Positions 57,831 through 63,981 of a stretch of DNA of 64,000 nucleotides are shown in pieces (position 1 is the stretch's first letter; each line of letters opens with the position of its first letter). The notes under the pieces are model-generated. The model did not search any database. It was given only the letters and a program-made list of their open reading frames with translations, and was not told the DNA's origin. Position numbers and translations under genes: made by a program. Source of the stretch: an uncultured Thermoplasmata archaeon (GTDB lineage Archaea; Thermoplasmatota; Thermoplasmata; Lutacidiplasmatales; UBA184); assembly GCA_963749205.1 (NCBI GenBank), contig CAVVLW010000006.1:449176-513175 (forward strand). The letters are read 5' to 3'.

Positions 57831-57872
57831 TGTATTGGAGGGGGACACTGCTGAATTCTTCATATCCCTAAC
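57831..57872 (+). repeat. 41-nt bulged hairpin repeat, copy 1 (most divergent)
   Basis: TGTATTGGAGGGGGACACTGCTGAATTCTTCATATCCCTAAC. Confidence 0.7.
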
Positions 57873-57980
57873 CGGACCATCAACGGGACAGCGGGACTGC
57901 GCAACTACATGAAAGCGAGATGACGCCACTCTCGCATCCAGCGGGCCTCCGGAGCGGGGGTGCACCTGGTGCGCCGCGGC

Positions 57981-58007
57981 GGCTGGGTGCATGAGGTGCA
58001 CCGAGCC
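57981..58007. repeat. REP-like palindrome (variant)
   Basis: GGCTGGGTGCATGAGGTGCACCGAGCC. Confidence 0.5.
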
Positions 58008-58120
58008 GCTCCTCCCGGGGAGACTGGGGGAGGCACCGCACGATTCTTCCGATTCTATACCATGCTCTTGGGCGACCCACCTTCCCGATCGAGGGACCCC
58101 CCCCGTTACACAACCCCCTC

Positions 58121-58173
58121 GTTAGAAAACGGTGCGAGCGGAAGACTTCGGGCCCTCTTGTCCCAAAACGAGC
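58121..58173 (+). repeat. 53-bp direct repeat, copy a
   Basis: GTTAGAAAACGGTGCGAGCGGAAGACTTCGGGCCCTCTTGTCCCAAAACGAGC; ends 32 nt before the SRPBCC-like gene. Confidence 0.75.
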
Positions 58174-58204
58174 GCTTAAGTCGACCCCCCGATTTCCGCT
58201 CCCT

Positions 58205-58705
58205 ATGCCCGAACGGGGCCACCGGTTGTACGGCACCACCCGGGTTCGCTTGTCACTAGTGATCCGCGCCCCTTCGCGATACGTGTACGAGTGGTGCACG
58301 GACTACCGGACCAGTGACTCGCGGCTCACGACGGCACGTCCTTTTCCGACGTTTCGAGTGATCCGAATTTCGCCGCGTCGCGTGCTCCGCGTCCGCGTTT
58401 ACCCGGGTCGCGGGGTCGACGGCGGTCGCGACCCCGCGATCGCGGTCGACCTGGTGCGTCTCAATCCACCGCACTCTTGGCACCTCGATCAGATCGACGA
58501 AACCGATCGGCAGTCGCTGGATTATCGTGTTACCGCGATGGGCCGAGCGCGGACCCGCCTTCATCTGTTCTCTACCGAGAGCTGGCTCACGCCCGACCAT
58601 CCGACGAAGGAAGAACTTCGCGCACAAGTGGCGGCCACTTGGGCCCGATTTGCGGCGGCCCTCGAGGTCGATTACCGAGCGGGACGGCCCGCGAAGGGAC
58701 CCTAA
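58205..58705 (+). CDS. SRPBCC-like protein
   Basis: 166 aa; VIRAPSRYVYEWCTDYRTSD, paralogous to 6098..6580. Confidence 0.5.
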   Translation: MPERGHRLYGTTRVRLSLVIRAPSRYVYEWCTDYRTSDSRLTTARPFPTFRVIRISPRRVLRVRVYPGRGVDGGRDPAIAVDLVRLNPPHSWHLDQIDETDRQSLDYRVTAMGRARTRLHLFSTESWLTPDHPTKEELRAQVAATWARFAAALEVDYRAGRPAKGP

Positions 58706-58899
58706 CGGACCCCCGGAAGGTTCGGGCGGAGCTCCCCAGTTATACGCGCCCATCCGCAATTCCGGGGGCGGGCGCGCCCAGACACGCGAACGCGAGCTCC
58801 AGCACCTTGAGCGCTTCTCTACGGGATCCTCGAACGAAACCTGTCAGGGAGTAGGCGCACTTCCGTCCTGCCCGAATCGGGTGGGTTGACAAAGCACCG

Positions 58900-58952
58900 G
58901 TTAGAAAACGGTGCGAGCGGACGACTTCGGGCCCTCTTGTCACAAAACGAGC
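58900..58952 (+). repeat. 53-bp direct repeat, copy b
   Basis: Same sequence with 2 mismatches (GGACGAC, TGTCACAAAA), 195 nt after the same gene. Confidence 0.75.
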
Positions 58953-59181
58953 CCGTTTTCGAGCAGACGTTTTGATCGCCCGTCGCGAGATCGCAGCATT
59001 GGCGCAGGCTTAATGGAGGACGCGCAGGGCCGATGACCCGATTGCAATCAACGGGGGGGCGATGATGGACCGTGAGAAGCGGGTGCCGGCTCATCGGGAC
59101 CACCCGCGAAGTGACTTTCCTCACGACATGCGAATCCTTGGAGGCTCACAATCCCCGACGTCCTGAACTCGACTCGGAGTG

Positions 59182-61448: not shown

Positions 61449-61702
61449 CGCCTTGGTCGATCAAGTGGTCCGAGACCGCTGTCCGAGACCTGCACAGCCT
61501 CGATCGGACAGTAGCCCGCCGGGTTGCAACCAGGCTTGAGGCGGCCTCCTCGAACCCGACCCACTACTTCACGAGATTAGCAAGCTCGGACGAGTACAAG
61601 CTCCGTATCGGTGACTACCGCCTCCTCGCGGTACTCTCCCACTCGGATCAGACCATTCTGGTGGAACGAGTGGACCATCGGTCGCGAATTTACGAGCGGT
61701 GA
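61445..61702 (+). CDS. RelE/ParE-family toxin without canonical start codon
   Basis: Not in the ORF track. The frame is open from 61415 to TGA 61700..61702 and reads WSIKWSETAVRDLHSLDRTVARRVATRLEAASSNPTHYFTRLASSDEYKLRIGDYRLLAVLSHSDQTILVERVDHRSRIY. There is no ATG/GTG/TTG at its 5' end. Confidence 0.6.
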   Translation: MTPWSIKWSETAVRDLHSLDRTVARRVATRLEAASSNPTHYFTRLASSDEYKLRIGDYRLLAVLSHSDQTILVERVDHRSRIYER

Positions 61703-61793
61703 CGCAGACTTCTTCCACCCGGCTCCTTCAGAGAAACGGGTGCACCAGCGGACTCTGGCCCACTCAGTTTTTCGGCGATAAATCGGCGAAAGA

Positions 61794-61834
61794 TGTCGGA
61801 GGGGGACACTACTGAATTGTTCATATCCCCGACA
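61794..61834 (+). repeat. 41-nt bulged hairpin repeat, copy 3
   Basis: TGTCGGAGGGGGACACTACTGAATTGTTCATATCCCCGACA. Confidence 0.8.
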
Positions 61835-61978
61835 TGGGGGTCAGCGAGAAAGCGTGATTGCGCGACTACCCGTAGTCTGGAAAGCGCGATTACAAGAGTG
61901 CCCGGTGCGGTTGGGTTTCCGGGGCGTCCGAAGCACCCGGTCAACTAGTCAAACCACTGTCTCTTCCCTAAACCGGGC

Positions 61979-61985
61979 CTTAATC
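61979..61985 (+). promoter_or_regulatory. TATA-like box of cyclase paralog 4
   Basis: CTTAATC centred 27 nt upstream of GTG 62008. Confidence 0.45.
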
Positions 61986-62007
61986 TAACGAACGCCGTTC
62001 TCGGTGC

Positions 62008-63921
62008 GTGGCCGCGACCCGTCGCCTCGCTGCAATCATGTTTACCGATATGGTCGGCTCCACGGCACTGGCTCAGACCAACGAACCGGAGGCTCTCCGC
62101 CTACGAGATGAGCAGGAAGGTCTCGTCCGCCCTCTCTTCGCGGCCCACCAGGGACGCGAGATCAAGTCGATGGGCGACGGGTTCCTCGCCGAGTTCGATA
62201 GCGCTCTGCGGGCCCTCCAGTGCGCGATTGACATTCAGCAGCGCATCCACGAGAGAAACTCGCTGCCAGGCCAATCTCCAATCCACCTTCGCGTCGGGAT
62301 TCACCTCGGAGATGTCGAGGTACGAGGGACCGATATCTTCGGGGACTCTGTCAACGTCGCTTCTCGAATCGAAGCGCTTGCCGAACCCGGGGGAATCTGC
62401 ATCACTGATCCAGTGTTCGGTCAGGTCCGGAACAAGATTCCTAATCGTCTGGAGAAACTGGCGCCCCAAGTGCTAAAGAACGTCCGGTTCCCCATCGAGG
62501 TTTACAAAGTGACCATGCCGTGGGAGCAGAATGCCGGCATCTCCGGAGCGTTGGACAAGCATCGCGTCGCGGTGATGCCTTTGGTAAACATGATCTCCGA
62601 CCCCAGTGAAGCCTACTTCGCGGATGGAATGACCGAGGAGATCATCTCGGCCATCTCCAAGGTCCGCGAACTCGATGTCATCTCGCGGACGTCGGTGACC
62701 CAGTACCGAAACACGACGAAGAAGGTAGCTGAGATCGGCCGTGACCTCAACGTCGGCACGTTGTTAGAAGGCAGTGTCCGCAAGGCCGGGAACCGCGTCC
62801 GGATTGCCGTGCAATTGATTGATGCGAACAGTGACAAGCACATCTGGGCCGAGAACTACGATCGGACTCTCGAGGACGTCTTCTCCATCCAGAGCGAGAT
62901 AGCCCAGAGCGTCGCCTCCATGCTGAAGGTCGCACTGCTGGAGGACGACCGGAAGAGGCTCGAGCGGGCACCGACCAAGGACCCAGAGGCTCACTCGCTG
63001 TATCTTAAGGGGAAGGCGGCTCCGTCGTATCAGATTGCGTCCGAGTTCTTCCAGAAGGCAATTGATACGGACCCCGAGTACGCCCTGGCGTACACTGCCC
63101 TTGCGGACGCGATCCTCCAGATGGGATTCCAGGAAACCACTCCGCCGAAGGAGTCCTCACAGAAGGGAGAGGCGCTCGTCGTGCGAGCGCTGGCACTGGA
63201 CCCGTCGCTTGCAGAGGCTCACGCTGTGTTGGCGGTAGCTCTATTCTCACGGGGGGAGTACCAGGGTGTCGACCGGGAGCTCGACCTGGCGCTCGAACTG
63301 GACCCCAACCATACCACCGCCCTCGGCCACAAATCGAATTGGGAGCGGTTCAAGAGACATTTCGACGAATCCGAGCGTCTCGCGAGGAGAAGGCTGGAAC
63401 TCGATCCGCTCTCCTTGAACATGATCCAGGATGTGGCTGGCCAGCTGCTCCGCCTTCGCCATCCGGAGGAAGCCATCGCACTCCTCACGAAGGTCCTCAA
63501 GATCGACGCGGGCGCATTTTGGAACCGGTCCGACCTCGGTTTGGCGTACGTCCAGTTGGGGAGGTTCGAGGAGGGCATCGCCTTCCTCCGGGAAGCCATT
63601 GGCAAGGAGAATACCTTCAGCCTGGAGTGCGCCACGACCTACCTGGGGTACGCCCTCAGCAAGGTCGGGAAGATCGACGAGCTGAGAGAGCTGCTTTCCG
63701 AGGGGCTCGAATGGCACAGCAAGAACCATCGAGGTGCCCTCCCGATCGCGGTGATGTACGCGGACTTGGGGGAGAACGACCGCGCGTTGGAGTGGCTCGG
63801 GAAATCCTTCGAAGAACGTCCCTACATGCTTCCGGCCGCCTTCAGCGATTTCTACCTCGAGCAGCTTTGGTCGGATCCCCGGTTCGAGGCTCTCCGGAGG
63901 CGTTTGGGCTGGTTTGATTGA
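62008..63921 (+). CDS. class III adenylate/guanylate cyclase - TolB-like - TPR protein, paralog 4
   Basis: 637-aa intact ORF; MFTDMVGST, SMGDGFLAEF, GDSVNVASRIE, VAVMPLVNMISDPSEAYFADGMTEEII, then TPR-like repeats. Confidence 0.9.
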   Translation: MAATRRLAAIMFTDMVGSTALAQTNEPEALRLRDEQEGLVRPLFAAHQGREIKSMGDGFLAEFDSALRALQCAIDIQQRIHERNSLPGQSPIHLRVGIHLGDVEVRGTDIFGDSVNVASRIEALAEPGGICITDPVFGQVRNKIPNRLEKLAPQVLKNVRFPIEVYKVTMPWEQNAGISGALDKHRVAVMPLVNMISDPSEAYFADGMTEEIISAISKVRELDVISRTSVTQYRNTTKKVAEIGRDLNVGTLLEGSVRKAGNRVRIAVQLIDANSDKHIWAENYDRTLEDVFSIQSEIAQSVASMLKVALLEDDRKRLERAPTKDPEAHSLYLKGKAAPSYQIASEFFQKAIDTDPEYALAYTALADAILQMGFQETTPPKESSQKGEALVVRALALDPSLAEAHAVLAVALFSRGEYQGVDRELDLALELDPNHTTALGHKSNWERFKRHFDESERLARRRLELDPLSLNMIQDVAGQLLRLRHPEEAIALLTKVLKIDAGAFWNRSDLGLAYVQLGRFEEGIAFLREAIGKENTFSLECATTYLGYALSKVGKIDELRELLSEGLEWHSKNHRGALPIAVMYADLGENDRALEWLGKSFEERPYMLPAAFSDFYLEQLWSDPRFEALRRRLGWFD

Positions 63922-63940
63922 CCACAGTTGGCAAGAATTG

Positions 63941-63981
63941 TGTCGGAGGGGGACGTTACTGAATTCTTCATATCCCCGACA
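63941..63981 (+). repeat. 41-nt bulged hairpin repeat, copy 4
   Basis: TGTCGGAGGGGGACGTTACTGAATTCTTCATATCCCCGACA; 20 nt after the cyclase-4 stop. Confidence 0.8.

Follow-up and report, generated by a model that had tools for sequence, protein, structure and literature searches.

A 41-nt repeat bordering gene modules beside a tRNA(CAU) gene in soil Thermoplasmata: a candidate attachment-like junction

The 64,000-nt stretch analysed here (the window; positions 449,176–513,175 of contig CAVVLW010000006.1, assembly GCA_963749205.1) comes from a soil Thermoplasmata archaeon. Towards its right-hand end a 41-nt repeat occurs four times and separates blocks of genes (Table 1). A sequence-only reading of the window had drawn attention to this repeat as a bulged hairpin at cassette borders. 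Our main finding is that one edge of the repeat matches the end of a tRNA(CAU) gene located just outside the window, and that arrays of co-oriented copies lie beside this same tRNA gene in related genomes.

Repeats and modules at the locus

The four plus-strand copies reported at 57831, 61077, 61794 and 63941 are all present. The 41-mer itself is found at the last three of these positions with one or two mismatches each, and a 32-nt core, GGAGGGGGACACTACTGAATTCTTCATATCCC, at 57837, 61081, 61798 and 63945 with none to two, again always on the plus strand; the chance expectation for such matches, estimated from dinucleotide shuffles, is zero. Copy 1 is the divergent member, with changes in both outer arms (TGTATTGG...CCCTAACC). 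The absence of the family from the first 57 kb was confirmed, a profile built from all copies giving only matches with E > 2 there. Two shared flanks that had been noticed also stand: the sequence upstream of copies 2 and 3 is 86% identical over 74 nt (family D1) and the block downstream of copies 1 and 3 is 75% identical over 87 nt (D3). The EcoRI site placed in the loop is present in copies 1, 2 and 4 (GAATTC) but not in copy 3 (GAATTG). Past the window, the continuation of the same contig (L018, a further 4.8 kb) contains no additional full copy.

The gene content assigned to the blocks is largely correct. The HTH_10 regulator, the epimerase, the DUF7557 antitoxin with its RelE-like frame and the cyclase with TPR repeats are all present; the label SRPBCC-like finds no support in Pfam.

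Table 1. Features of the repeat-bearing part of the window. F, alpha, beta and D2 are described in the text; L numbers denote loci carrying the repeat.
Feature	Position	Strand	Basis
Degenerate F block upstream of copy 1, with T-arm-like TTTCAAGTCCCCGACA	57740–57830	+	Repeat family D4; alignment with other F blocks
Copy 1, outer arms diverged	57831–57871	+	Profile, 48.6 bits
Alpha block, non-coding, about 300 nt, ending in a D2 element (58110–58173)	57872–58204	+	Homology in other loci
Module gene, 166 aa, called SRPBCC-like in the sequence-only reading	58205–58705	+	Gene call; no Pfam match
Second D2 element, CGTTAGAAAACGGTGCGAGCGG...AAAACGAGC, downstream of the SRPBCC-like gene	58889–58952	+	
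Module gene, HTH_10 regulator	59182–59910	-	Pfam PF04967 (gene table)
Module gene, NAD-dependent epimerase	60004–60957	+	Pfam PF01370
F' block, a copy of the tRNA(CAU)-following sequence	60990–61076	+	Blast match to the tRNA-flanking F of L018; alignment
Copy 2	61077–61117	+	Profile, 60.2 bits
Module gene, DUF7557 antitoxin	61212–61448	+	Pfam PF24434; orthologues after a repeat copy in L006, L014, L015 and L017
RelE-like frame, intact, without an ATG, GTG or TTG start after the antitoxin stop	61449–61702	+	Translation; RelE is the label of the sequence-only reading
Hairpin part of an F block only, TTTTTCGGCGATAAATCGGCGAAAGA	61767–61793	+	
Copy 3	61794–61834	+	41-mer match; profile search
Beta block upstream of the cyclase gene, its end holding a TATA-like box TTAATCTAAC (61980–61989)	61835–62007	+	
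Module gene, adenylate/guanylate cyclase with TPR repeats	62008–63921	+	Pfam PF00211 and TPR on L018 gene calls
Copy 4, 20 nt past the cyclase stop codon, without F block	63941–63981	+	41-mer match; profile search

The tRNA(CAU) gene and the anatomy of the junctions

A scan of the window for tRNA genes found nothing. The same contig extended 4.8 kb past the window (locus L018, reached via a look-up of the antitoxin) contains a tRNA gene with anticodon CAU and a 31-nt intron, on the minus strand at L018 14058–14160, 1.3 kb beyond copy 4. The link was visible only after this extension because ARAGORN misses the intron-containing tRNA. The gene terminates in ...CCCCCCUCCGACA / GGGGGUUCAAAUCCCCCCUCCGACA, and this minus-strand 3' end is the source of the first 12–13 nt of the repeat.

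The repeat can accordingly be divided into two segments. The first 12 nt, TGTCGGAGGGGG (O), match in reverse complement the final 12 nt of the tRNA(CAU) gene; the remaining 29 nt, ACACTACTGAATTCTTCATATCCCCGACA (X), always face the next module. To the left of O many copies carry up to about 95 nt (F) that reproduce the sequence following the tRNA gene. In the window F is full at copy 2, where it consists of a T-arm-like GTTCAAATCCCC, a spacer and a hairpin TTTCTCGGCGAGAAA; it is represented by the hairpin only at copy 3, is degenerate at copy 1 and is missing from copy 4. The F flanks are colinear (E = 2e-7), which excludes a chance origin for the match to the tRNA.

The association is general. 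In eight of the eight loci that hold a tRNA gene (L005, L008, L011, L016, L018, L021, L026 and L027) this is an intron-containing tRNA(CAU) gene, on the strand opposite to the repeats and 1.2–4.1 kb from the nearest copy, and in all eight it is followed by a conserved F of about 95 nt with a hairpin TTTCTCGGCGATAAATCGGCGAAAGA (plus orientation) and a T-arm-like GGGTTCAAATCCCC. As in attachment repeats, TGTCGGAGGGGG is a direct repeat identical to a segment of the tRNA, and in each of these loci an intact target tRNA stands at the end of the island with the repeats in the orientation of its 3' end.

The breakpoints are sharp. L018 and L009 are homologous through F as far as TGTCGGAGGGGG and then part, into the body of the tRNA in L018 and into X, ACACTACTGAATTC..., in L009; homology between genomes breaks exactly after the 12 nt of O. 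Where a copy lacks F, unrelated sequence directly adjoins TGTCGG. On the other side most copies are followed, at a distance of 10–16 nt, by a conserved leader start, AGCG.GA.AGCG.GATTGCGC.ACTAC, including places without a co-oriented gene next to them.

Some junctions depart from this plan. Those of type T (L003 3070–3082 with 6917–6941, L022 3016–3040 and L023 14256–14280) hold a genuine 25-nt duplicate of the tRNA's 3' end, and the inverted partial T-arm that comes next, TGTCGGAGGGGGTATTCGAACCCCCCGGGGGTTCAAAT, completes a near-palindrome. Type I intermediates also exist, one being TGTCGGAGGGGGGAACTACTGAATAGTTCAAATCCCCC in L014. An origin of the repeat in the T-arm-like half of F was also considered: intermediates are present, but profile scores for the halves of F are not significant (E 0.1–0.3).

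Three direct repeats of the form TCGG-N-G-R, spaced by 11–13 nt (TCGGCGA...TCGGCGA...TCGGAGG), were seen by eye in the window at 61050–61090 and in F blocks of the other loci. They run from the F hairpin into O, the third overlapping the tRNA-derived 12 nt, and may be protein-binding sites. Readings of the junction as a C/D-box or H/ACA element, a primer-binding site or a split tRNA were discarded on inspection by eye, with the boxes absent, ACA not conserved and no TGG before O. A coding repeat was likewise ruled out; most copies start ATG, GTG or TTG and would read MSEGDTTEFFISPT, but the three codon positions are equally conserved, substitutions are non-synonymous and no in-frame conservation continues downstream.

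Module borders, order and exchange in related genomes

The search of genomes and metagenomes that had been proposed for the repeat was productive. An exact scan with the pattern GGGGG-N6-CTGAATT-N-TTCATATCCC gave 17 stretches in species-representative genomes, all of them metagenome-assembled genomes of Thermoplasmata from soils, and nine in metagenome contigs; a profile search of the loci brought the number of further copies to about 50, in roughly a dozen related genomes. Each genome has a single cluster of up to 6–8 copies, all co-oriented. There are 5–6 copies in one 8-kb tile, six in two neighbouring tiles of a 35-kb contig and at least seven in a 22-kb contig. In contigs of 186–670 kb every exact match falls within one or two 8-kb tiles, which were shown to adjoin in two contigs. 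Over 43 distinct copies the mean column identity of the repeat is 91%, compared with about 45% in unrelated flanks.

Comparison of these genomes bears out the view that the copies bracket gene blocks: a module's homology extends from one copy to the following one and stops there. The toxin–antitoxin block, which follows a repeat copy in the window and in the four loci named for the antitoxin in Table 1, illustrates this. Between the window and L017 identity is 43% in the upstream flank, 93% in the repeat, 71% in the leader, 86.5% in the antitoxin, 98.4% in RelE, 93% in the spacer and 100% over the first 14 nt of the next copy, which include its O, falling to 43% beyond. The module is a mosaic, since the antitoxin at 86.5% adjoins RelE at 98.4%. 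The cyclase–TPR family accounts for 38 reading frames in the loci, usually after a repeat copy and a beta block.

Cassette variation had been proposed as a check, and module orders do differ between genomes. The window reads alpha/SRPBCC/HTH_10/epimerase, toxin–antitoxin, cyclase, amidohydrolase, tRNA; L016 reads cyclase/DUF1330, alpha, tRNA; and L001 together with L005 reads cyclase, cyclase, tRNA. In L009 two modules stand between the 'amidohydrolase-F' unit and the next F, a unit that in the window abuts the tRNA.

We compared modules with their surroundings. Modules are 85–95% identical to those of the window, whereas the adjacent core is at 72–80%. The amidohydrolase is 93.3% identical in L009 and 90.6% in L008; the stretch 58070–58898, covering the 3' part of alpha, the SRPBCC-like gene and the sequence after it, is 95.3% identical to L012; copy 1 with alpha and the SRPBCC-like gene (57814–58712) is 90.2% identical to L004; and alpha is at 86–89%. 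By comparison, F with the tRNA and rpS3Ae is at 72–80% and the downstream ATPase gene at 75–80% (core values from L005, L008, L011, L016, L021, L026 and L027). A direct comparison of module and core within one tile is possible in L008, L011 and L016. That modules are far more similar than the neighbouring core indicates that they have been exchanged between lineages or species; vertical descent is hard to reconcile with these values.

Besides the genes of the window, the arrays carry oxidoreductases, GNAT acetyltransferases, methyltransferases, MFS transporters, DUF1330, RibD_C, NUDIX, DsbA and beta-lactamase-like proteins, and further HTH_10 regulators.

Several non-coding blocks travel with the modules. 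Alpha (window 57872–58180, plus strand) recurs in L002, L004 (twice), L008, L010 (twice), L011, L013, L014, L016 and L023. It is 86–90% identical to eight other loci, across species, with a mean column identity of 81% and indels that break any reading frame. It lies directly after a repeat copy, up to three times per array and ahead of different genes. Its folding is better than that of shuffled sequence on the plus strand (z -2.5) but not on the minus strand (z -1.0), and this block may represent an RNA not yet described. Its identification with the RNA of SRP or RNase P, or another known RNA, was rejected, since it has no match and is multi-copy. Homologues of beta precede cyclase genes in L001, L005, L010 and L016, with partial matches in L002 and L012. 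The D2 element, CGTTAGAAAACGGTGCGAGCGGAAGACTTCGGGCCCTCTTGTCCCAAAACGAGC, forms a direct repeat around the SRPBCC-like gene, 89% identical over 64 nt and 96% over a 53-nt core, and recurs in L004, L008, L010, L012 and L016. The 52 nt that precede the second D2 copy in the window continue into F in L012 instead, a divergence that marks another recombination joint.

A TATA-like box, GGCTTAATCTAAC, stands about 27 nt before the start codon at window 61977–61990 and before many cyclase genes of the loci. It is enriched 25–40 fold upstream of start codons, the cyclase form TTAATCTAAC 30–40 fold. Upstream regions are richest in A and T between -30 and -21, and the box probably serves as the local TATA box. 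Because of this spacing, which the antitoxin box TAATCTATAT shares, the transcripts are probably leaderless.

The cyclase gene is a single 637-aa frame in the window and is split into frames of 135 and 448 aa at L018 10960–12713, in the ENA assembly of the same contig; the coordinate offset between window and L018 shifts by 3 nt, and the discrepancy is an assembly difference or a frameshift, which accounts for failed exact-protein look-ups. Of six such look-ups, made to detect strain variation, four gave no match and the other two led to the same single contig.

The window region is rich in insertion sequences. Four paralogous IS110-family genes (DEDD_Tnp_IS110 with Transposase_20) lie at 21371–22549 (+), 33688–34875 (-), 40014–41192 (-) and 42025–43212 (+), and two DDE_Tnp_1 genes at 14118–15152 (-) and 25857–27206 (-); none of the six adjoins a repeat copy. 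A guide or bridge RNA in which alpha or beta pairs with the repeat was rejected, there being no excess of shared or complementary 7–8-mers over shuffles. All four IS110-family genes lie far from any copy.

Interpretation and comparison with known systems

We propose that a composite junction, with the 41-mer as its conserved core, lies between the modules of an array beside the 3' end of tRNA(CAU) (Met or Ile2), and that this junction is att-like, produced by the serial insertion of modules that carry no recombinase of their own. We put the probability of this reading at about 0.5. The order F-O-X-module-(arm)-O-X-module-...-F-O-tRNA would be the trace left by site-specific recombination at the tRNA's 3' end, and from it we infer an enzyme, a crossover point inside O and a direction of growth. 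The site-specific recombinase would most likely be a tyrosine integrase that acts in trans, and it would join a circular (arm)-O-X module to the O at the end of the tRNA gene. Every insertion would keep the tRNA intact, duplicate O and push older modules outwards, and recombination between copies would later reshuffle or remove modules. O would be the crossover segment and X an arm borne by the module; the constant 29 nt of X would be kept because modules losing X could no longer recombine.

A number of observations weigh against this proposal. The identity to the tRNA covers only 12–13 nt, the modules can be as small as 0.7 kb (a single operon), and the two arms of the repeat stand 21 nt apart, a distance too long for the overlap region of a tyrosine recombinase. 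The length of F differs by junction (0, about 25 or about 95 nt), unlike what one fixed attP would leave, and the palindromic T-arm junctions of type T and the type I intermediates are not explained by it. Homologous recombination between repeats could give the same shuffling, though not the origin of the junctions. Polymorphism for presence or absence among strains was not obtained, only one contig carrying these genes.

The searches for an enzyme and for a free element weigh in the same direction. HUH/Y1 transposases and integrases had been suggested as neighbours to look for; neither these nor any other recombinase occurs among about 53 annotated reading frames (Pfam scans and precomputed Pfam matches for the genes of L018, ten window frames and the arrays of 18 related loci). 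No integrase gene or remnant is present in the annotated frames of this locus or of the 18 others, and precomputed Pfam matches show no integrase or fragment of one among the remaining genes in the roughly 13 kb that adjoin the array on its far side. Genes for replication or virions were likewise not seen among the annotated frames of the arrays and their flanks. Viral contigs gave no match to either of two patterns of the site, and plasmid and phage records none; one unrelated provirus beside a different tRNA shares the same acceptor end.

A more specific model can be entertained only tentatively. The 3' end of tRNA(CAU) would be the entry site of an integron-like platform for cassette capture, in which a tRNA-derived site of about 41–175 nt accompanies each cassette in the place of attC and an unlinked recombinase inserts, excises and exchanges single-operon cassettes between species.

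It is also conceivable, if rather unlikely in our judgement, that the repeats are passive anchors. The repeat with F, alpha and beta would be conserved intergenic sequence, and modules would be duplicated, lost and swapped by ordinary homologous recombination between copies, including after uptake of DNA from relatives, with no dedicated enzyme. This would agree with arrays that hold no recombinase, with the length of the shared blocks (41 nt for the repeat, rising to about 175 nt once F and the leader start are added, and about 300 nt for alpha), with the presence of a separate copy at each tandem cyclase paralogue and with the mosaic identities of the toxin–antitoxin module. It leaves unexplained the sharp TGTCGG edge against unrelated sequence, the coincidence of that edge with the tRNA gene's final 12 nt, and the 91% identity of a 41-nt non-coding repeat among species whose core genes are at 72–80%.

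We regard as improbable that the repeat is in the first place a cis-acting signal for expression, its centre CTGAATTCTTCATAT acting as an operator, or as an outward archaeal promoter for alpha and beta (as small RNAs or long leaders), or serving to co-regulate the modules. That centre is the most AT-rich patch in GC-rich spacers and is more conserved than the outer arm, and HTH_10 regulators are frequent in the arrays; the leader start conserved without a co-oriented gene and the better folding of alpha on the plus strand point the same way. But the genes have TATA-like boxes of their own about 27 nt before the start (TTAATCTAAC for cyclases, TAATCTATAT for the antitoxin), and at window copy 4 and in L004, L007 and L008 the gene that comes first after the copy lies on the other strand. 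All copies of a genome lie at one locus, unlike a regulon, and the tRNA-derived left edge is left unexplained. X as an outward promoter or operator could nevertheless coexist with a junction role.

A function in RNA was also considered: a tRNA-like minihelix or hairpin in read-through transcripts, where it would act in processing, stabilisation or termination between modules. The arms do correspond to tRNA acceptor and T-stem sequences, the loop has a T-loop-like TTCATAT, F contains GGTTCAAATCC and most module genes run in the same direction as the copies. Pairing of the outer arms is possible in the form described, but it is weak and is not maintained. Folding z-scores for copies 1–4 as RNA are +1.3, -0.2, -2.2 and +1.1, and similar as DNA, so that in three of four contexts the fold is no stabler than that of shuffled sequence. 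Covariation is at the level of shuffles (0.015 in each case, over the 43 distinct copies). Of the eight outer pairs, two have been disrupted in about half of these copies (C4-G38 in 19, T1-A41 in 23) by uncompensated changes in the 3' arm, the 5' arm being invariant. No T-run follows the stem, contrary to what a simple terminator would need, and the whole window has no Rfam match at the gathering score; at E up to 10 only chance-level matches, none of them to tRNA, appear in 57600–59100. We consider a role in RNA very improbable. The apparent hairpin is a by-product of descent from the self-complementary acceptor/T-arm of a tRNA, not a selected structure: the 3' arm of the repeat, CCCCGACA, resembles the opposite strand of that same helix.

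The original leads, an integron attC site or an IS200/IS605-type end read as single-stranded DNA, are close to refuted. They had in their favour the same-strand copies at module borders, the single unpaired A in the stem, cargo of integron type (toxin–antitoxin, GNAT, DUF1330) and a nearby TnpB. When about 300 nt surrounding every one of the four copies was scanned on both strands with a regular expression, no RYYYAAC (R'')...GTTRRRY (R') pair came up; the archaeal integrons described so far have canonical attC sites (PMC9668308), and an attC stem is maintained as its sequence varies, the reverse of what is seen here. Neither IntI (or another integrase of Phage_integrase type) nor a Y1 transposase occurs in the annotated frames in and beside the arrays, and the cargo between copies is unrelated. 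The only TnpB-like gene, 2.3 kb beyond copy 4, is split into frames of 302 and 161 aa with PF07282 on the second (L018 15123–16488, beyond the window at about 66330–67700 in its coordinates); it sits outside the array on the far side of the tRNA and rpS3Ae, and no copy adjoins it. A dif/Xer site does not fit either: its core has two 11-nt inverted arms with a 6-nt spacer and is single copy (PMC8371274), and the repeat, as read from its sequence, has arms about 21 nt apart and is multi-copy.

If the modules are still mobile, the arrays would represent a second, independent archaeal way to stockpile and trade accessory genes, here cyclases, toxin–antitoxin pairs, acetyltransferases, transporters and redox enzymes, and O with X would offer a sequence handle for finding the enzyme and for tracking gene flow in uncultured soil archaea. 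If they are static, they are an ordinary relic of old integrations. Islands beside tRNA genes are a well-known product of integrases. We know of no description, for Thermoplasmata, of recombinase-free arrays of single-operon modules that share one tRNA-derived site.

Archaeal integrases favour the 3' ends of tRNA genes, and tandem integration followed by loss of the integrase gene is known (PMC8371274); in Prochlorococcus, tycheposons leave arrays of partial tRNAs by serial integration (10.1101/2020.12.28.424599). With these arrays of integrated elements our loci share an intact tRNA at one end of a variable island, co-orientation, accessory cargo, direct repeats copying the tRNA 3' end at each module border and older insertions further out. 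They differ in having no integrase, fragment or backbone gene at about 50 junctions, one-operon modules, tRNA identity of just 12–13 nt, the same additional 29 nt in every copy and, in many, a duplicated tRNA downstream flank of about 95 nt. The virus SNJ2 likewise targets the 3'-distal end of a tRNA-Met through a very short core without stem-loop, 14 bp compared with 12–13 nt here (PMC5861418). SNJ2 proviruses, however, are found in Halobacteria, not Thermoplasmata, and carry an integrase and two accessory proteins beside att, whereas none is linked to our arrays.

The likeness to integron arrays and to CALINs, the integrase-less attC clusters that are also present in Archaea (PMC9668308), lies in the single array per genome, the small, mostly co-oriented and promiscuously exchanged cassettes, the conserved imperfect palindrome between them, the toxin–antitoxin and acetyltransferase cargo and the lack of a recombinase inside the array. 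Unlike integrons, our arrays have no attC core sequences and no maintained fold; most of the site remains attached to the downstream cassette rather than the upstream one, the cassettes have their own promoters with some genes inverted, and the anchor is a tRNA gene in place of intI/attI. The layout of the array is intermediate between tRNA-anchored integration islands, the 'graveyards' of integrated elements, and the cassette arrays of integrons.

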